A DNA stretch of 63,790 nucleotides, counting the filler, from Reclinomonas americana ATCC 50394 (lineage: Eukaryota): the NCBI GenBank assembly GCA_048213135.1. It is 3 parts of 2 records of this genome, joined end to end, with 100 filler letters (N's around TTAATTAATTAA, not from the genome) between each part and the next. Parts side by side here need not be neighbours in the genome. Positions count along the whole stretch, not along the records: positions 1 to 30,192 come from PS015271.1; 2 more parts are not named here. One strand, given 5' to 3'. The notes under the pieces were generated by a model. It saw only the letters and a program-made list of their open reading frames with translations, was not told the origin of the DNA and ran no database searches. The translations under genes were made by a program, and so were the position numbers. Below are positions 2,980 to 54,883 of this stretch, piece by piece; the stretch's first letter is position 1; each line of letters begins with the position of its first letter.

Positions 2980-5005
2980 TCAGTTGGCCATGAAGTCACC
3001 ACCTGCGAGGGAATAGGCAACAGCATCAGCAACATGTTCTCACAGAGGACATCTCTCTTTCTCTCCAACTCTCAGACCACAAACCCTCCTTCGCACCCCT
3101 CTTGCCCGACCACTCTTCAGACAAACGCTGCATCAGATTGCCTTCTCTTCTCTCCAATTCTCCGACCACACCCCTTTCTTTCCTCTCCACCACTAGAATC
3201 AGAGCCCAGATGCTCACAGTATGGAGCGCGCACATTCCCCTCCTACCCCCCTTCTACCCCCCTTCTCCTCCCCTTCTCCTCCCCTTCTCCTCCCTTTCCC
3301 CTTTCCCCCTCCACACCATTAATATCAATGGAGGCCCCGTTAATATGCGCCGCACTCTCCGTCGCCAGGAACCCAATCAACGACGCAATCTCCGCCGGCT
3401 GCGCCATGCGACCGGCCGGACACCGCCTCTCCCACGCCGCCAGCGTCTCGGCCGGGAAAAACTTGCGCAACTCCTAACAAAAAAGAAGGGTGAGGAGCGG
3501 TCACGAAAGAAACGCAGGGGTGCAAGTTTTCTTTACCGGCGTGTCGACGAGGGACGGGCACACTGCGTTGACGGTGATGCCGTGGCGCGCCTCCATGCAC
3601 GCCAGTTGCCTGGTGAGACCGAGCAGACCGGCCTTGGAGGCGCTCACGGGGAGGGAGCCTGGCGTGTCACTCGTGAGGAAACGCAAAAAGGGGGGAAAAG
3701 GTGGAGATGGGGGGTGACGAACCGCCACGGCTGTGGCTCTTGCCGGCCTTGGACGACAGATTAATGATGCGTCCCCAGCCGGCCTCACGCATCTGCGGTG
3801 AATTGTGAGGGGATGCGGGGATGGGGAAAGGGAGGAAGTACTTCTAATGTTACGCAACGTACTTGATCGCAGCGCGGCATGTGTAGAACGAGCCCTGTGG
3901 GTGAATAGCGAGTGAGGAGACAATGGAGCAGATCATCTTGCTCCTTCTCGTGACTCTTAGATGCGCGCTCACTCATCGCGATCCGCACAAACAACGGAGC
4001 TTGATCTCTTGAACAGCAACTCGCATGCAGAGTTCCTTCGCCAGCAGATCATCTCGCTCCTTCTCGTGACTCTGAAATGCGCGCTCACTCATCGCGATCC
4101 GCACTGACAACGGAGCTTACTCTCTTGAACAGCAACTCGCATGCAGAGTTCTTTCGCCGACTTTCGAGTACACAGAGCTCTGTCTTGCTCACCCACTCTC
4201 CATCTCAGACACAGGACTCATCCCCTCTTGTTGTTCACTCCGATCGACCATGCTGTTCTTGCACATTTCTCTTGTTATCTACTTTGTGTGCACCACTACA
4301 AGTCGCTCAAGCTGCAATCCTGCCTGCCTGTCTGGGGTTCCCATGCAACACAGAACTTACTCGCGAATAGGAGTTCAATGCCTCGCCATCTATCTTATCT
4401 CTCAGTGTCTTCACTGAGCACCCACCATTGTGGTAAACCTTTTCGATACTTGTCCTCCCTTTCCTGCATCCCTCCCTTCCCCTTCCATCCACACTCACCG
4501 ACAAATTGAAATCCATGATCAATCGCCACTCCTCATCCGTCATCTCACAAATGTCCTTGTTGGGACGCGTAATCGTCGCACAGTTGACCAGAATGTGCAA
4601 CCGACCGCCCATATCCTCCGCCGCTCGGGACACCACAATGCGGACCTCCTCCGAGCTCGACACGTTGAGTGGGATGATTGAAATACGTTGCGCTGTTGGG
4701 GAGAGGAATGAGACAGAATACAAGAGTTGCTGCTCGTGCGCGCGCGCACACCTCCAGCAGGCGATGGTGGTGCGACAGGCAGCGCGGCCACGCACGCGCG
4801 CAGAGCCGTCTCGTCCACACCCGTCGCCACCACCGACGCACCCATGGCCCACAACTGGTGGACCACCGCGCAACCAATGTCGCGGGAGCAGCTGCGGCGG
4901 GGCGAGGAAATGCGATGAGCGCGGGGGTGAGGGAAGACAACCGTCGACGGGCAACACGAACCCAGTCACCAGAGCCACGCGACCGTGGAGAGGTGGGAGC
5001 ACGGC
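2980..5005 (-). CDS. Short-chain dehydrogenase/reductase (FabG-like fold) with atypical active site; start exon not located
   Basis: Spliced exons read AVLPPLHGRVALVTG-CSRDIGCAVVHQLWAMGASVVATG...-LHILVNCATITRP...MTDEEWRLIMDFNLS-GSFYTCRAAIKY-MREAGWGRIINLSSKAG...-GSLPVSASKAGLLGLTRQLA..GITVNAVCPSLVDTP-..GRMAQPAEIASLIGFLATESAAHINGASIDING-GDFMAN*. Confidence 0.9.
3925..4160 (+). repeat. Direct duplication of ~118 bp in an SDR intron
   Basis: gcagatcatct..gctccttctcgtgactct...atgcgcgctcactcatcgcgatccgcac...tcttgaacagcaactcgcatgcagagttc occurs twice in tandem. Confidence 0.85.
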
Positions 5006-5551
5006 CTGAGAGGAGGGGGTGAGTTATGGATCGCAGAAGGGAGGCTTGCAGAAAGTATGACACACGACTGGAGAAGAAGCATGAAACAAGACAGACAGTG
5101 ATCCACAATCATCACGATTCTCTCTCTCACACAAACTACGGTGAAGGACAAGACTCCAATTCGAACAGGGTGCTCTGCTGTTGATCTCTCTCGACAGGAG
5201 GAGACAGCTCACTCGGGGATGGATTGCCTTTCGAGAAACAGGGTGTTGCTCACTTTCTCTCTCTCTCTCCTCAAAACGAAGTATGCTTGGCTGTTCTCAT
5301 TGTCTTATCGATCCGCAACATGCAAGGCTCCATGTCCCTCGCAATCACTACAGAATCACTGGTGCTTCTCGGCAGCAAGACAACTCACTAAAATCTCAGA
5401 CTGACGCTCGATGATCAAGGGCGTCTCTCTCTCTCTCTCTCTCTCTCTCTCNNNNNNNNNNNNNNNNNNNNNNNNNNNNNNNNNNNNNNNNNNNNNNNNN
5501 NNNNNNNNNNNNNNNNNNNNNNNNNNNNNNNNNNNNACACTACTACTACTA

Positions 5552-5930: not shown

Positions 5931-18034
<12,104 letters not shown>

Positions 18035-18694: not shown

Positions 18695-21600
18695 TTAATA
18701 ACCCTCACCCTCATCAACCATCACACCGGTAAAATCCGGCAAAAAGCAGCTGAGGACGCGATCTACCAGCCCTCCGCCAAAGCCACGCATCATAATAATA
18801 GAGCTTCCGGTGGCGAGGACTCCGACAATGTCGTCGGCAAATGCGACGGTACGTGCTGAATCGACCAAGGTATCGTGCCGCAACTCCTCACCGCTCGTCA
18901 GCGACCACACACGTACGGTCTCATCGTCACTCCCACTGATTACGTGCTGACCATCGGGGGAGACCGCAACTGACCTCACGGCAGCAGTGTGCCCCTCCAA
19001 CCGCAGCGAAGCCTCACCGCTTGCCAGCGACCACACCAACACTGTCCCGTCAAGACTGCCACTGACAATGTGCTGTCCGTCGGGTGTGATGGTGACGGAG
19101 AGCACGTAATCAGTGTGGCCCTTGAGCTGACGCACTTCTTCTCCCGTTGCCAATGACCACACTCGTACCGTCCTGTCCAGGCTCCCACTCACAGCGTGCT
19201 CTCCGTCGGGCGTCACGGCGATAGAGATCACTTCATGCGAGTGTCCGTTAAGTTGACGTACTTGCTGTCCGCTCTCCAACAGCCAAACCCGCACCGTGTA
19301 GTCGCGACTCGCACTCACAATGTGCTGGCCGTTGGGAGTGATGGCAACCGAGTGTACTGCATTGGCATGCCCCTGCAAGCAACGCACTTGGTCTCCACTG
19401 TCCATGGACCACACTCGTATTGTCATGTCACCTCCGCCGGTCACCACATGCGTGCCGTCGGGTGTGACAGCCACCGACCGCACCATTTCCGTGTGCCCCT
19501 CCAATCGCAACACCTCTTCTCCACTGTGTACACACCACACACGCACAGTCTTATCACAAGCGCCACTGACAATGTGCTTGCGATCGGGTGTGGCAACAAC
19601 CGACAACACATCACCGGTGTGCCCTTCGAGCCGTCGGACCTCTTCACCACTTCCCGCAGACCACACCTGGATGGTGCCGCGGCAGCGGCCTCCACTTCCA
19701 CTCACAATGCGGTCACCACCGGGGGAAACAGCGACACNNNNNNNNNNNNNNNNNNNNNNNNNNNNNNNNNNNNNNNNNNNNNNNNNNNNNNNNNNNNNNN
19801 NNNNNNNNNNNNNNNNNNNNNNNNNNNNNNNNNNNNNNNNNNNNNNNNNNNNNNNNNNNNNNNNNNNNNNNNNNNNNNNNNNNNNNNNNNNNNNNNNNNN
19901 NNNNNNNNNNNNNNNNNNNNNNNNNNNNNNNNNNNNNNNNNNNNNNNNNNNNNNNNNNNNNNNNNNNNNNNNNNNNNNNNNNNNNNNNNNNNNNNNNNNN
20001 NNNNNNNNNNNNNNNNNNNNNNNNNNNNNNNNNNNNNNNNNNNNNNNNNNNNNNNNNNNNNNNNNNNNNNNNNNNNNNNNNNNNNNNNNNNNNNNNNNNN
20101 NNNNNNNNNNNNNNNNNNNNNNNNNNNNNNNNNNNNNNNNNNNNNNNNNNNNNNNNNNNNNNNNNNNNNNNNNNNNNNNNNNNNNNNNNNNNNNNNNNNN
20201 NNNNNNAGGACACCCGCCCTGTATGCCCTTCCAATCGTCGTACTTCCTCCGCGGTCTCCACTGACCACACTCTCACAGTCTTGTCGGAGCTGCCACTGAC
20301 AATGTGCTTTCCGTCGGGCGTGAAGGCAACAGACTCCACACTCCCAGTGTGCCCCTTGCAACAGAGCATGAGACTACCAGTCTCCAGCGACCACATGCGC
20401 AACGTCTCGTCGATGCCACCGCTCACAACGAACAGACCATCCGGACTGGTCGACACGCATTTGACTCCCTCAGTGTGACCCTCAAATCGCCGCACTTCAT
20501 CACCACTCGCCAGTGACCACACACGCACAGTTTTATCAATACTGCCGCTCACGACATGCTTACCGTCGCGGGTGATCGCGACGCACGATACACCGTCGGT
20601 ATGTCCATTGAACCGCCGTACTTCCCCTCCACTCGCCGCCAGCGACCACACGCGTACGGTATAGTCGTTGCTCCCACTGACAACATGTTTCCCATCAGGA
20701 GCCACGGCAACTGCCCAAACTTGGCAAGTGTGTCCCTTCAACATCCGCACTTCTTCACCAGTCGCCAGCGACCACAAACGCACAGTCGTGTCCCCACTGC
20801 CACTCACCACGTACCGATCGTCGGGAGTGACAGCCACCGAAAACACCCACTTCGCGTGCCCGGTCAGCTGCCTCACTTGTGCACTGTTCTCCATTGACCA
20901 GACTCGCAAAGTCATGTCCCCACTCCCACTTACTACGAACTGACCATCATAACTGCAGGCGACCGAAGCCACCCCCATGGTGTGTCCTTTCATCGGTTTC
21001 CTCGGCCACCTCACATCCGTCACATCCGCCCCTGTGAAATCCGCCTCCCNNNNNNNNNNNNNNNNNNNNTCGCAAACGCCATGCACACATTCACCCCACG
21101 TAAATCCGCTCCCCTCCACACCGTCCTGTGCATCACCGCATCCCTCAAATCCGCACCCCTCACTCGCACGCCCGACAGATCTCGGCCGCTGTACGACACT
21201 TGAGCCACACTCAACACCGTCGCTGCATTCGCAGCAGCCGTCACCACTCGATCGTCATCCTCCACGCGAGACAAATAAATTACCTCCCACAATCTCGCTT
21301 GCAATCGAGGAGATCGTCGCACCACCTCGGCCATTTGTTCCACCAACGATGGTCGATCATTCAGCAGTCGCACTGCCAGCACATGCTGCTGCACATCTTG
21401 CATTGTCAGTCTCTCGGCGTCTCCCCACGTCTCCCATGCAAACATATGCCGTGCCACGCAGTGCTCCAGCAAAGACAGATGCACAAAACCCCACTGCGTC
21501 GTCCCAAATCGTCGCACAATCGGGCAGCACACACGCACGTGCCGGTTCTTGTCGCCAAGAAACTTGTCCCACGGCCCCTCATCTGCTCTCGCAACTGGTG

Positions 21601-23347
21601 ACGACGGAGCGCCGCAAAAGTCATCTTCTTCTTCTTCATCGTCACCGAACTGGTTGTGGGGCGACGAGACACGCACCGCATTCCTCTCGTGCATCAACCG
21701 CGCCAGTCCCTCACAGAATGCAAGACACGTCTCCTCACTCGGCACACGTTCCGCACCAACACGTGTCTGCCTCTCCTGCTCCCTCGCAATCCACTGGCGA
21801 ATGAATCGGTCAAACACATCGCGCCGAGTCGGTCGTTGCACACCACTCGCAACCAACTGCGGCAGTACGCGAGCCACCACTGTCAGCAGGAACGGATTCG
21901 ACACCAGCGCATCCAGTCCATGTACACTCTTCAGTGCACGAATGTACTCCTCGGCAGTCGACCATCGCACCTCACCGTCGTCACTATCGCCATCCACTTG
22001 CACCAGTCGCTCAAAGTACTCCTCAATCTGCACCTTGCTGAAGGCTGCAACGTGCCGCTCCAGCAGCTGCCGCAAGCATAGCTGTCCACGTGTATCCACC
22101 GGTGCAAAGTACCGTCGATACTGCGCCGATCCACCCAGTGCCGTCAGTGCGAAGTCACCGCGACAGGTGATAATCACCTTCACATCGCGACACACATCCA
22201 GTTGGTTCTTGACAAACAGATTCACACCACGGTACAACTCGTCGTACCCGTCAAGCAACAACAGCAATGGTTTCTCCCTCTTCAACCGTCGCACATCCGT
22301 CTCGCTGAATCCCAACTCGGGCGACAGTCGCTCCAATGCCTCCTCCAACAATCGCTCATCGGAGCTGCGCAGTGAACCAAGAGGCACACGGACCGGTAGT
22401 CTTTGCCGACTCCCACGTGGCTGTTGCCACTGTCGCCAAGCCCGCTCGGCCAACAACGACATGGTGGTGGTCTTGCCGGCGCCACTGTTGCCAAACAGCA
22501 CCAGCACACGGTGGGTGGTGTTGGTGTCGGCGAGGAATGCATCAACCTCGGTCAGCAGGTCCGTCAACTCCTTGGATTCGCGCTCCCGGGAACACAGCAG
22601 TGGTACGTACATCTGCATGTCCTTGCGCACACTCTCGTCGTGTTGATAAAACGAGAGCTCACGTACAGCCAGTCGATGCAGTCGCTCTTCGAATGTGTCC
22701 ATGAAGAAGCGAGCATGGCACGCCTCACGGATACGGGTGGTGTACCGCGCAAACTCGTCAGCCGTGAGCCACAATCGAGAAAGGATGGAGAGAAAGACAC
22801 CATCGTCGCCGAGATACCGGAGAACTGTTGTATCTGTCCACGGCGGCGGGTTGTGTATCAGCACGTTCCTCACGTCACGAAGTTGCTCCACAGCCTTGCG
22901 CTCGTCAACGTCGTCAATTAGCAACAGCTTGCGACCATCCTCGCAAAGGAGTCCACCGTACAGCATGATGGACGAGAGGGCAGTCGTGTCGAAATCGGTA
23001 CACGAGGGGTCGGACGAGGGGTCGGCATCGAATGCAGCACGCCAGGCCAACACCGCCGGCTGCTTCTCCTCAAACAACTTGACTCTCCCGGGGAGGAGTG
23101 GAGCATGTCGCGTACGCCAAGCCTTCACAGCCACGGAGTGCATGTGCAAGCCAGTCGGCACAATGCTCGGAACCCACATACACAGATCGCCAGTGTTGAT
23201 CCGTGGAGACCACATATCAGATGCCCAAGCCCGCGCATCAAAGTCGGCATGATCGCGACTGAACTGAGCCATCGAGTACAGGCAGCGAATACCCGCTGCC
23301 TCCTCCACAGCCTCGAACCCCATGTGGACGCGCTGCGAGTTGATCAT
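18695..23347 (-). CDS. STAND/NLR-like protein: N-terminal HEPN-like domain, NACHT, pentapeptide repeats, at least 13 WD40 repeats; intronless where sequenced, interrupted by two N gaps
   Basis: Walker A GNSGAGKTT (22469-22492); Walker B LLLLLDGYDE; KVIITCR sensor; NPFLL (GxP-like) motif; pentapeptides RDLSG/ADLRD/ADLRG/ADFTG; 42-aa WD40 units LEGHTxxVxSVAVTPDGKHIVSGSxDxTVRVWS; N-terminal DFDTTALSSIML...EQLRDVRNVLIH. Confidence 0.92.
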
Positions 23348-24024: not shown

Positions 24025-24050
24025 GTGCGTGATTGTGATAGGGGTGATGG

Positions 24051-24226
<176 letters not shown>

Positions 24227-28651: not shown

Positions 28652-31600
28652 GAGAGAGGAGGAGAGAGAGAGAAGAAGAGAGGAGGTGTGAGAGAGAGAA
28701 GAGAGTAGAGAGAGAGAGAGNNNNNNNNNNNNNNNNNNNNCCCTCACTCGCTCACTCCTTCCCTCCCTCCTTCCCTCCCTCCTTCCCTCCCTCCTTCCCT
28801 CCCTCCTTCCCTCCCTCCTTCCCTCCCTCCTTCCCTCCCTCCTTCCCTCCCTCCTTCCCTCCCTCCTTCCCTCCCTCTTCCTCCCTCCTTCCCTCCTCCC
28901 TCCTCTCTCCCCTCCAATCCCCTCGTCTCTCTTCCCTCTCTCTCTCCCCTCCCGCTTCCCTCAACCCCCCTCTCTCCCCTTCTTTCGCTCAGTGTCTCGC
29001 TCCCCTTCTTTCGCTCAGTGTCTCGCTCGTCACTTGATCACCTTTCGCGCGTCCTTGCTTGCCTGATTACATCACCTGCAGCGTGCTTCATACGCTTCTC
29101 GTCTTCTTCTTCATCGACCTGTCTCAGTTGGTCTTGTGTGATATCTTACTCATCTTTTTCTCCTTCCGCTGCACAGACGATGCATCACGCATGACGAGTG
29201 ACTTCATGCGGACTCTGCGGCGCGAGGTGGACGATGCCGATGAGTTGTACCGTGCCGAGTTGTTGCGATTGTCGGCGCGCTTGGATCAGTTCGAGAAGCG
29301 TTGCGAGGAGGTGAGTGGGTTTAATGATTTTATGGAGGGTTGGCAATTTGCTTCTATCGCTCTTTCTCTCTCTCTCGCTCTGTTGCTCTCGCTCTCAGTC
29401 GCTCTTGCTATCGCGCTTGCTCTGTCGATCTTGCTCTTGTCGCTCTTGCTCTGTCGCTCTGTCGCTCTTGTCGCTCTTGCTCTTGTCGCTCTTGCTCTTG
29501 TCGCTCTTGCTCTTGTCGCTCTTGCTCTTGTCGCTCTTGCTCTTGTCGCTCTTGCTCTTGTCGCTCTTGCTCTTGTCGCTCTTGCTCTTGTCGCTCTTGC
29601 TCTTGTCGCTCTTGCTCTGTCGCCCTTCCCTCACTTTGTCGCGCTTCCCCACACCTTTCTTTTCTTTCTCCCCGCCCCCACCCTTCTCCTCCTCCCCTCC
29701 CTTCTACCCTCTCTTCTCCCTGTCCTTCTCCCTTCTCCCCCCCTTCTCCCCTTCTCCCCCCTTCTCCCTTCTCACCACCCTTCTCCCCTATTGTAGATCC
29801 TCCACTCGAGCACCACCCGCGCCTCCACCACCCGCCGCCTCCGCCACACCGCCCAGACACTGGAGCGTGAGCTCTCCTCGCTCCGCCTCTTTGCCGAGTT
29901 CAACTGCGAGTCGGTGCGCAAGGCGTGCAAGAAGCTGGACAAGTGCCTCCTGCGCCTCGAGCGTCTCAACGCCGACGCCGTCGACGCCGCCGGCGCTCCT
30001 TCTGCTGCCGCCGCCCCCTCGTCGACGGCGCCAGTGCCGTGGTCTCTCGGCCTCTCGGTCTCACTGTCGCCGGCCGCCAGTTCCGCCGCGCCGGCAGCCA
30101 ATCGCCGTTGCCAGCAGGCGCTGTCGACGGCCTCATTTTCCTCCTCCGACAATCTCCTGGAGCTGATTGCGCGCGTGGGCTCGTTGCGCGCGNNNNNNNN
30201 NNNNNNNNNNNNNNNNNNNNNNNNNNNNNNNNNNNNTTAATTAATTAANNNNNNNNNNNNNNNNNNNNNNNNNNNNNNNNNNNNNNNNNNNNCGCATCGA
30301 CGCCGACAGCCTGCGCATTCACGAAAAGGCGGAGCAGCAAGAGTCGTCGTCGATTCGCCGTTTCCTGCTGTGCACGGCGGTGTTGTCGTCGCTCTTCCAT
30401 TTCATGTTGCCGGAGGTGTCGGTTAGTGATCAAGGGCGCTCTTTGCTTCTGTAGTGATTACTCACCTTTGTGTCCCCCTCGCGCAGCTCTCGCTCCTGGG
30501 CGCCGCCACGCACACCTTTATGGTCTACGTCATGTACCACTTGAACATGCGTCGCGTGCACGTGCGCCAGCTCTTCCAGGCCACGGCCGTGCTTGCTCGC
30601 TTCGCATTCCACCGCCACGTGCGCCGCCAGCATGCGACCGCCATTCCCGCGCCGCTCCACCCGACCGAGGTGCACGTCACCACGTTCTTCTCGTACCTGC
30701 CGCTCAACTTCTTGTCCAAGGCGTGGGGNNNNNNNNNNNNNNNNNNNNNNNNNNNNNNNNNNNNNNNNNNNNNNNNNNNNNNNNNNNNNNNNNNNNNNNN
30801 NNNNNNNNNNNNNNNNNNNNNNNNNNNNNNNNNNNNNNNNNNNNNNNNNNNNNNNNNNNNNNNNNNNNNNNNNNNNNNNNNNNNNNNNNNNNNNNNNNNN
30901 NNNNNNNNNNNNNNNNNNNNNNNNNNNNNNNNNNNNNNNNNNNNNNNNNNNNNNNNNNNNNNNNNNNNNNNNNNNNNNNNNNNNNNNNNNNNNNNNNNNN
31001 NNNNNNNNNNNNNNNNNNNNNNNNNNNNNNNNNNNNNNNNNNNNNNNNNNNNNNNNNNNNNNNNNNNNNNNNNNNNNNNNNNNNNNNNNNNNNNNNNNNN
31101 NNNNNNNNNNNNNNNNNNNNNNNNNNNNNNNNNNNNNNNNNNNNNNNNNNNNNNNNNNNNNNNNNNNNNNNNNNNNNNNNNNNNNNNNNNNNNNNNNNNN
31201 NNNNNNNNNNNNNNNNNNNNNNNNNNNNNNNNNNNNNNNNNNNNNNNNNNNNNNNNNNNNNNNNNNNNNNNNNNNNNNNNNNNNNNNNNNNNNNNNNNNN
31301 NNNNNNNNNNNNNNNNNNNNNNNNNNNNNNNNNNNNNNNNNNNNNNNNNNNNNNNNNNNNNNNNNNNNNNNNNNNNNNNNNNNNNNNNNNNNNNNNNNNN
31401 NNNNNNNNNNNNNNNNNNNNTGCGCTGCACAAGGTGCGCTTGCCCAAGTGGGTGCGCAAGCCGCTGTACACTGTGTGGTGAGTGGGAGGTGGAAGAGGGT
31501 GGTGTGGGTGGGTCACATTCTCTTTCCTGGGGTTTCCTCCTCACGCGTCTTGATGAAGAAAGCGCACACACTCATTTCCAAGTCACCTATTCGCTAGCCT

Positions 31601-53298: not shown

Positions 53299-54883
53299 AT
53301 GTCGCTCTGCGAAATCATCGCCGACACCGCCAAGGACGACGACGCGGTGCTGCAGGAGTTGCAGGAATGGGTGCTGACGCATGGTGTTGAGGCACTCGAG
53401 CAGGAGTCGCCGAGCACACTGCACACGCCGGCGTATGCCGCCGCCCGCCGCGGCCTGCTGCGCTCGCTGGCCTATATCGCACAAAATGCACCTTCGCGAG
53501 GTCTCGTGTTGGAGACGCCTCCGCGGTATAGCCAGTGGACGCCGGCGCATATTGCGTGTGATGCGGGTCACGTGGCGGTGGTGCAGTACTGTGTGGAGCA
53601 TGCGCCGAGTGGGGCGCAGGTGTTGGAGCGCGCGAACGACGACGGGCGCACCTTGGCGTTGCTCGCCGCCAACAACGGGAGTCTGGAGATGCTGCGCTAT
53701 GTGGCCGCACACGCGCCGAGTGGGGCGCGTGTGTTGGAAATGGGAAACCGACAGACGTGCGCGTGGCCGGCCACACCGTCCATGATTGCGGCCGCACGAG
53801 GCGATGTGGCTATGCTGGAGTACATTGTGTCGCACGCACCTAGCGGAGCTGCGACGCTGGAGCGTGTGGATTCGAACGGGTACACGGCGGCGGAGCACGC
53901 TTGTCGACAGGGCAAGTTGGAGGCGCTGGCCTTTATCGTTGAGCACGCACCGAGCCACGGTCAGCTGCTCGTCCAGCGCAACAGGAACGACAGCAGCATT
54001 CTCGTGCAGTGCGCCACCGTGCCGGTGCTGCAATTCGTTGTGCAGCGCGTGCACGATGGCGCGCGAATGCTCGAGTTGCCGTGTATGGCGGACGAGTGGA
54101 CTTTGGCGCTGTACTTGGCTCGACAGGGCCAGCTGGAGGAGCTGCAGTATGTGGTGGCGGCGGCGCCGAGTGGCACCCTGGTGCTGGAGGCGGTCGGCAG
54201 CAGCGGCTTCACGACGGCACTCGGCGCATGCCAGATCGGCCACCTGCCGCTGCTGCGCTACATTGTGGCGACGGCGCCGAGCGGCAGCCGTCTGCTGGAG
54301 TGTGCCGAGACGAAGAACGGCAACACCCCGGCACACCTGGCGGCCCGGTCCACCCATCATGGTGTGAGCGCGGATGGTGTCTACGACCAGCTGGGTCAGC
54401 TCGACTTTATCGCGCAGGTGGCGCCCAGCGGTTGGCGAACGCTGCTGGTGCCCAATCGGCAACAGCGCACGCCAGTGCAGGAACTGGTCGGCAGCATGCA
54501 TGTGGCGCACCTGGCGGTGCGTATCCCGGCGTTTCTGCGGCGGCACTTGCCGATCGCCAGAGTGCTGCTTCGCCACCTCAACTCCCTCATCGGCGACCTG
54601 AAGGAGCAGCAGTTCGACGACCTGGTCGAGGAATACAGCNNNNNNNNNNNNNNNNNNNNNNNNNNNNNNNNNNNNNNNNNNNNNNNNNNNNNNNNNNNNN
54701 NNNNNNNNNNNNNNNNNNNNNNNNNNNNNNNNNNNNNNNNNNNNNNNNNNNNNNNNNNNNNNNNNNNNNNNNNNNNNNNNNNNNNNNNNNNNNNNNNNNN
54801 NNNNTGGCGGCGACGGCGGCGATGGTGGTGGCGATGATGATGACGGGTATGACAGTGAGCCGGAAGTTGGTATGGAGTGGTGA
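53299..54883 (+). CDS. Intronless ankyrin-repeat protein (about 9 repeats with an APSG insertion) and an acidic tail after the gap
   Basis: Repeats such as WTPAHIACDAGHVAVVQYCVEHAPSGAQVLERANDDG and YTAAEHACRQGKLEALAFIVEHAPS; post-gap frame GGDGGDGGGDDDDGYDSEPEVGMEW*. Confidence 0.88.

Follow-up and report, generated by a model that had tools for sequence, protein, structure and literature searches.

HEPN-NACHT receptors and the Reclinomonas americana gene

Receptors that place an N-terminal HEPN domain ahead of a central NACHT module and C-terminal repeats (LRR, TPR or WD40) are known from the DZIP3/hRUL138-like HEPN-NACHT proteins of molluscs, cnidarians and Capsaspora, whose HEPN carries an Rx4H motif with N after R. 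The same order, with a probable HEPN in first place, is seen in the gene analysed here, which lies on the minus strand (18695..23347) of a stretch of 63,790 nucleotides from the protist Reclinomonas americana ATCC 50394 (assembly GCA_048213135.1; the whole stretch is hereafter called the window, and all positions refer to it) and which encodes, from the N-terminus onwards, an effector region, a NACHT NTPase, pentapeptide repeats and WD40 arrays. The gene is probably a divergent addition to the HEPN-NACHT-repeat receptors already described. Judging from the sequence, residues ~91-190 of its product are probably a true, very divergent HEPN domain with R160-N161-x3-H165 as the candidate active site, and the gene itself can be read, with the same fair degree of confidence, as a STAND (NLR-like) receptor composed of: a long WD40 array, presumed to sense the ligand; a pentapeptide spacer; a NACHT module as the oligomerisation switch; and an effector of ~215 residues.

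The excerpts of Anantharaman et al. (PMC3710099) describe, for animals, fusions of DZIP3-type HEPN domains with NACHT, CARD, Death, LRR and other domains, the type being expanded in Nematostella, oyster and Capsaspora; CXorf38-type HEPN-NACHT fusions; bacterial HEPN-STAND ATPase fusions; and the transfer of bacterial-type Swt1-family HEPN domains to Naegleria and dictyostelids. KEN is counted there among the HEPN families. More than 50 NACHT proteins of the pearl oyster have an N-terminal DZIP3-like HEPN and LRR, TPR or WD40 tails, and Rx4H is the commonest form of the motif there (131 proteins), Rx4-6H being present in 194 of 202, usually with N after R (excerpts of PMC9646362). PMC8195603 counts HEPN among the effectors used in conflict systems, bacterial as well as animal, and also lists HEPN-STAND fusions. 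The words 'HEPN', 'RNase' and 'nuclease' are absent from the main text of a survey of fungal NLR effector domains (PMC9815663). A limited full-text search listed no paper whose title or opening lines of the abstract pointed to a HEPN-NACHT-WD40 protein in protists outside the Holozoa, which is not proof of absence.

Compared with the DZIP3-like HEPN-NACHT proteins, the R. americana gene lacks a match to the DZIP3 model of Pfam (PF18738), has a non-animal host and a pentapeptide spacer, and has no detected sequence homologue of its N-terminal domain. The closest profile match of this domain is the Swt1-like HEPN (PF18731), with which it has in common the motif helix (LRDVRN is identical in some members), a D-x3-L-x2-[VI]-M block upstream of that helix, and the order of the two blocks. 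It differs from the Swt1-like domains in having L-I in place of the W-A of R-N-x-W-A-H, a linker 1-8 residues longer, no match to the first helix, and a NACHT module as partner instead of the long open reading frames (ORFs) of those domains. In the prokaryotes sampled the Swt1-like HEPN domains are common and sit at the start of ORFs of either ~1100-1200 or ~240-520 residues, and PF18731 scored above its cut-off in 47 of the 401 Planctomycetota and 33 of the 301 Cyanobacteria genomes searched.

The initial annotation had compared the gene with the bacterial Avs and bNACHT defence systems. The comparison holds for the presumed logic, in which a STAND NTPase links a sensor made of repeats to an effector of nuclease type at the N-terminus, a logic shared also by bacterial HEPN-STAND proteins, and fails at the level of the models: none of the PADLOC Avs/bNACHT models matched residues 216-759, where the only PADLOC match was mad8 (E 6e-4, 17.4 bits, P-loop region), and the host is here probably eukaryotic. 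Avs and bNACHT act by oligomerisation. The KEN domains of RNase L and Ire1 are eukaryotic HEPN-superfamily RNases with an R-N-x3-H-type site, as in the candidate domain, and are switched on by dimerisation of the upstream module, which is a kinase or pseudokinase in those proteins and NACHT in the studied gene; no match to the Pfam KEN-domain was reported for any N-terminal segment.

Two HEPN-like motifs in the N-terminal region

The effector region comprises residues 1-215 (22703..23347; this and all the other features of the gene are on the minus strand) and has no detectable homologue. The start codon at 23347 is the first ATG past an in-frame stop located 10 codons upstream, and the ORF which it opens (21020-23347) has 775 codons, 759 of them readable before the first run of N. 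Two motifs had been proposed in this region by the initial annotation, and both were recovered: DFDTTALSSIML, at residues 118-129 (22961..22996), and RNVLIH, at residues 160-165, exactly at the annotated coordinates (22853-22870). The second closes AVEQLRDVRNVLIH (residues 152-165) and belongs to the candidate catalytic helix RKAVEQLRDVRNVLIH (residues 150-165, 22853..22900), which contains R160, N161 and H165. The annotated placement of both motifs upstream of the NACHT was equally correct, the motifs ending at residue 165 and the NACHT match beginning at residue 280.

R160-N161-x3-H165 is an Rx4H motif with a polar N after the R. Bare Rx4-6H has 7 occurrences in the 759 readable residues and is, consequently, uninformative by itself; R-N-x3-H is found once in the same residues, and R[NDH]xxxH has 2 occurrences in the N-termini of 18 relatives of the protein. 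Conservation in 76 Swt1-like reference domains peaks at these three positions (R in 76/76, N in 67/76, H in 76/76), and the D of the upstream block is present in 72/76. The third-helix block of the Swt1-like domains, (W)D-x3-L-L-x-[VIL]-M, lies ~35 residues ahead of the R; in DFDTTALSSIML, its candidate counterpart, D120, L124, I127 and M128 fit conserved columns, and the second L of the block is an S.

The significance of these blocks was scored with a position matrix derived from an alignment of 46 bacterial Swt1-like HEPN domains, the controls being 2000 shuffles and 2000 real windows taken from the relatives. The catalytic-helix block (16 residues, 150-165) scored 19.55 bits, a value reached by none of the 2000 shuffles and none of the 2000 real windows (control maximum, 13.06). 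The best match of the third-helix block, which is independent of the catalytic helix, fell exactly at residue 118 and scored 10.27 bits (equalled by 27/2000 shuffles and 14/2000 real windows). The fifth-helix block was weak (6.57 bits; 82/2000 shuffles and 65/2000 real windows).

Swt1-like HEPN profiles were built from 31, 46 and 76 prokaryotic sequences, and 44 of these sequences were also used with hhalign. The hidden Markov model (HMM) of 76 sequences (Planctomycetota and Cyanobacteria) gave 11.1 bits on the N-terminus, compared to a maximum of 5.6 bits over a background of 873,278 residues (4019 ORFs and proteins), and ranked the studied ORF first (9.4 bits; the next, 5.7) among the 717 six-frame ORFs of the window. 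The narrow profile of 31 sequences reached 5.8 bits only. For 18 relatives whose N-termini are long, the scores of the HMM of 46 sequences did not exceed 2.9 bits, a further difference between these proteins and the studied one.

The putative HEPN core was delimited by hhalign, which aligned residues 91-190 (22778..23077) with positions 13-118 of the 118-column Swt1-like profile (76 sequences; probability 57%, P 1e-4, 94 columns, 31% identity). A separate comparison with the 44 sequences placed both motifs in register (probability 53.6%, P 1.3e-4, 58 columns). The hhalign score was 27.4, compared to a mean of 11.9 (standard deviation 2.2, maximum 20.1) for 130 control windows from the N-termini of the relatives, and to 17.9 for the reversed query.

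Fourteen sub-segments of the region were searched against the 24,736 Pfam models (E <= 10), and only two families were reported: HEPN_Swt1 (PF18731), in 8 of the 14 segments (E 0.078-0.21, profile positions 74-100 of 115); and HEPN_Cthe2314, in 5 of the 14 (E 0.2-0.26). Six of the 14 sub-segments had no Pfam match at this threshold. Among the 5027 PADLOC models the sole match was CARF_HEPN (E 0.041, one of six segments). The matches to these three families were all confined to the R..H helix of the profile. An NCBIfam match to the actinobacterial CCA tRNA nucleotidyltransferase (residues 169-230, 22658-22840; E 0.0032, 16.2 bits against a cut-off of 438.8) was judged to be due to chance, and the NCBIfam scan gave nothing beyond it.

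The NACHT-pentapeptide-WD40 body, its relatives and its host

The NACHT NTPase core (residues 280-396, 22160..22510) matched PF05729 with E 2.9e-10 (40.7 bits against a cut-off of 26.7), and the wider NOD module reaches approximately residue 720. The Walker A motif GNSGAGKT (residues 286-293, 22469-22492), the Walker B motif LLLLDGYDE (residues 362-370, 22238-22264) and the NACHT motifs further downstream can be aligned to those of 14 relatives, indicating that the NACHT switch is probably intact. Between the effector region and the NACHT lies a linker (residues 216-279, 22511..22702), the C-terminal part of which aligns with the relatives and whose helices were predicted in a low-confidence model only. 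KLLLIDDVDE (residues 140-149) was considered as the degenerate Walker B of a second NTPase and rejected, there being neither an upstream P-loop nor a match of any NTPase model on the N-terminal segments.

The NACHT is followed by pentapeptide repeats (residues 723-753, 21089..21181; PF00805, E 3.7e-4, 20.4 bits against a cut-off of 20.2), which extend into the first of the two runs of N that break the gene (21050-21069, 20 bases; 19738-20206, 469 bases). The first WD40 block (280 residues, 20208..21047; PF00400, E 3.3e-69, 6 repeats matched) lies beyond this first gap, in another frame than the N-terminal and NACHT part, and the second (346 residues, 18698..19735; PF00400, E 1.3e-71, 6 repeats matched) ends at the stop codon 18695-18697. 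In all, no fewer than 12 WD40 repeats follow the NTPase. The frame differs across the N gaps, and ~1385 residues are readable in the whole gene. The sensor-switch-nuclease arrangement proposed for the protein by the initial annotation is borne out by Pfam as far as the WD40-NACHT-N-terminal effector order is concerned; its nuclease part, a HEPN, is weakly suggested, at the motifs only.

Twenty-eight longer proteins matched residues 200-760 at E <= 1e-3 (best E 3.7e-63), with 22-30% identity over 51-96% of this segment. The sources named were Linnemannia, Benniella, Dissophora and Mortierella (Mortierellomycota) and Physarum, the others being eukaryote and metagenome proteins. Most of the 28 carry NACHT, pentapeptide and WD40 families, and the Mortierellomycota and Physarum proteins have the same body and the same NTPase motifs as the studied gene; they differ from it in their N-termini, which are unrelated to residues 1-215 and show no similarity to them. 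The BLAST similarity of the relatives starts at residues 217-281 (186 for one relative), indicating that residues 1 to ~215 form a separate N-terminal module. The precomputed Pfam lists of the relatives, which give no positions and so do not map the extra families to the N-terminus, include at least kinase, TIR, OTU, SEFIR, EF-hand and non-ribosomal peptide synthetase (NRPS)-like modules, or in some cases no known extra family. Since the body is shared, the N-termini are unrelated and the extra families are varied, this looks like a domain-swapping family. Bacterial and archaeal genomes encode proteins with 27-46% identity to the WD40 part, and relatives of it were also found in metagenome-assembled genomes labelled Mycoavidus. 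Mycoavidus is an endosymbiont of Mortierella.

The window is likely to be of eukaryotic origin, because of a split dehydrogenase, long dinucleotide repeats, Myb and ankyrin genes, and the fungal and amoebozoan relatives of the NACHT. The dehydrogenase, of the short-chain type, extends over two minus-strand ORFs (window 3504-5023), adh_short positions 41-110 being encoded in 4310-5023 and positions 150-189 in 3504-3932; the split suggests an intron or a frameshift, and is the main sign of host splicing in the window. With such signs of introns, the receptor gene may have a further exon upstream. The minus-strand ORF 7027-8487 encodes two Myb-like DNA-binding repeats (PF00249, E 7.2e-17), and the plus-strand ORF 53299-54837 encodes ankyrin repeats (PF12796, E 4.8e-22). 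The spaces between the genes contain, beside several runs of N, long dinucleotide microsatellites (~24040-24100, 16500-17480, 28700-29000 and elsewhere), which are seen as (TC/GA)n in the DNA and as runs of the dipeptides ER, SL and TH in the translations. N accounts for 6486 of the 63,790 bases. Among 60 further ORFs of at least 130 residues, only the two dehydrogenase pieces had a Pfam match at E <= 1e-5; either the window contains few genes, or those it has are specific to the lineage or interrupted by introns.

Competing readings of the N-terminal domain

A number of results weigh against a HEPN identity of residues ~91-190, and several of them favour the best surviving alternative, namely that residues 1-215 are a lineage-specific effector or adaptor unrelated to HEPN, in which the R-N-x3-H helix and the D-x3-L are the product of chance or convergence. 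We consider this alternative unlikely. In its favour, no family model was significant on the region: the Pfam scans of the whole region gave no match, all the HEPN family matches were below the curated cut-offs and ~20-27 residues long, and the best family score was 13.7 bits (PF18731, E 0.078) against a cut-off of 27.5. The hhalign probabilities, 40-57% overall (P 1e-4 to 3e-4), are not decisive. When the motif helix (18 residues) was fixed and its flanks were shuffled, 40 of 100 shuffles attained the real local hhalign score, indicating that this score is carried wholly by the motif; only the global score, attained by 4 of 100 shuffles, gained from the real flanks. The first HEPN helices were not found, the score of the first-helix block being equalled by 1233/2000 shuffles and 1760/2000 real windows, and residues 1-90 matched nothing. 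The distance from the D to the R is 40, compared to 32-39 in 75 of the 76 reference domains.

The searches for homologues point in the same direction. With residues 1-275, phmmer gave no match at E <= 1e-3 in 1.84 billion representative proteins; in word-seeded searches (E <= 10), none of 2435 candidates of 426-1357 residues and none of 122 candidates of 30-425 residues matched the N-terminal region, the searches with this region covering proteins of up to 1357 residues. No relative of the domain was present among 95 pattern matches in metagenome contigs and 8 in viral contigs, and within the window the domain matched itself and one chance sequence (E 9.6) only, that is, no paralogue. Against solved structures, residues 1-275 gave by sequence two chance matches only (E 1.4 and 1.6) and residues 96-215 none, and the Swt1-like profile of 44 sequences retrieved only a ribosomal and a ciliary protein (E 0.14 and 0.34). 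These searches yielded no homologue of the domain in which the conservation of the R, N and H might be compared. Two single-sequence AlphaFold2 models had predicted local distance difference test (pLDDT) values of 39.1 and 38.0, too low to be used, and one of them, of residues 88-215, drew several strands, in line with a domain unrelated to HEPN. The relatives of the NACHT carry many unrelated extra domains, so that one more of an unknown kind would be unsurprising.

However, the only matches in two independent libraries were three HEPN families, two separate blocks were found in the right order and with nearly the right spacing, and no control came near the observed scores, either in the 873,278 background residues or in the 130 control windows. 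In addition, the nearest feature clusters in Protein Atlas were DZIP3-like HEPN in both runs (0.84 for residues 1-275 and 0.83 for residues 88-235), followed by DUF4559 and Swt1 HEPN. These neighbours are a lead only, scores below 0.9 being attained by one third of shuffled proteins in the tool's own calibration, a point to be counted among those against a HEPN.

The initial annotation had taken the motifs as the signature of DZIP3/Swt1-like HEPN domains. The Swt1-like half of this claim found weak, concordant support at the two motifs only; the DZIP3 half was not supported by Pfam, whose own model PF18738 (cut-off 27 bits), the only one used for DZIP3 membership, gave no match on any of the 18 N-terminal segments scanned (threshold E <= 10, or E <= 1 for one scan), which also counts against the HEPN identity. 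PF18738 was above its cut-off in none of the 5 and none of the 401 prokaryote genomes searched. As for the branch of HEPN to which the domain would belong, the profiles favour the Swt1-like side and the language-model features the DZIP3-like side.

A broader formulation, which we hold tentatively as a possibility, is that the first 215 residues may found an unsampled effector family of a poorly sequenced protist lineage, either a deeply divergent branch of HEPN or a new fold that converged on R-N-x3-H, mounted on a NACHT-pentapeptide-WD40 body. In that case, RNase-armed NLR-like receptors outside animals and bacteria would have arisen by independent domain shuffling.

It is improbable that the domain descends from HEPN and has ceased to cut RNA, acting instead as an RNA-binding or oligomerisation adaptor, as was proposed by Anantharaman et al. 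for the eukaryotic Swt1 HEPN (excerpts of PMC3710099). The same excerpts describe the HEPN dyad of Swt1 itself as probably inactive and RNA-sensing, and the extreme divergence of the R. americana domain, whose linker between the third and fourth helices is longer than in 75 of the 76 reference domains, would agree with such a loss. On the other hand, the inactive versions are recognised there by the loss of the R-N-x3-H motif, and in the studied domain the R, N and H, the most conserved columns of the reference set, are all present. It is highly improbable that the gene does not function as read, being instead a pseudogene, an artefact of assembly over the N gaps or a contaminant from a bacterium, as the two gaps with a differing frame on either side and the bacterial and archaeal likeness of the WD40 part might suggest, given ~1385 codons open on one strand with the expected domain order and intact NTPase motifs, flanking long microsatellites and a split dehydrogenase typical of a eukaryote, and a NACHT part closest to fungal and amoebozoan proteins.

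Returning to the reading of residues ~91-190 as a divergent HEPN domain, we infer the fold itself, an RNase activity, its triggering by proximity, and a role in immunity or cell death; the receptor role would follow from the architecture only, and the action as a dimerisation-activated RNase from analogy. Binding of a ligand by the WD40 array would release the NACHT module, and NTP-dependent oligomerisation of the latter would bring the N-terminal domains together; the paired HEPN domains would then form composite R/H sites and cut RNA, leading to cell arrest or death, or to the destruction of invader RNA. This mechanism draws in part on that of RNase L, Ire1 and Csm6.

Both the architecture and the logic presumed for it have been published before, and they open no new question. 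If the N-terminal domain is HEPN, the known range of HEPN sequences would be extended by a domain without a detectable sequence relative. If it is, moreover, an active HEPN RNase, the gene would give a eukaryote outside the animals a NACHT-WD40 receptor armed with an RNase, an arrangement so far described for animals, Capsaspora and bacteria, and would provide a data point for the view that NLR-like receptors across life share one pool of effector domains.

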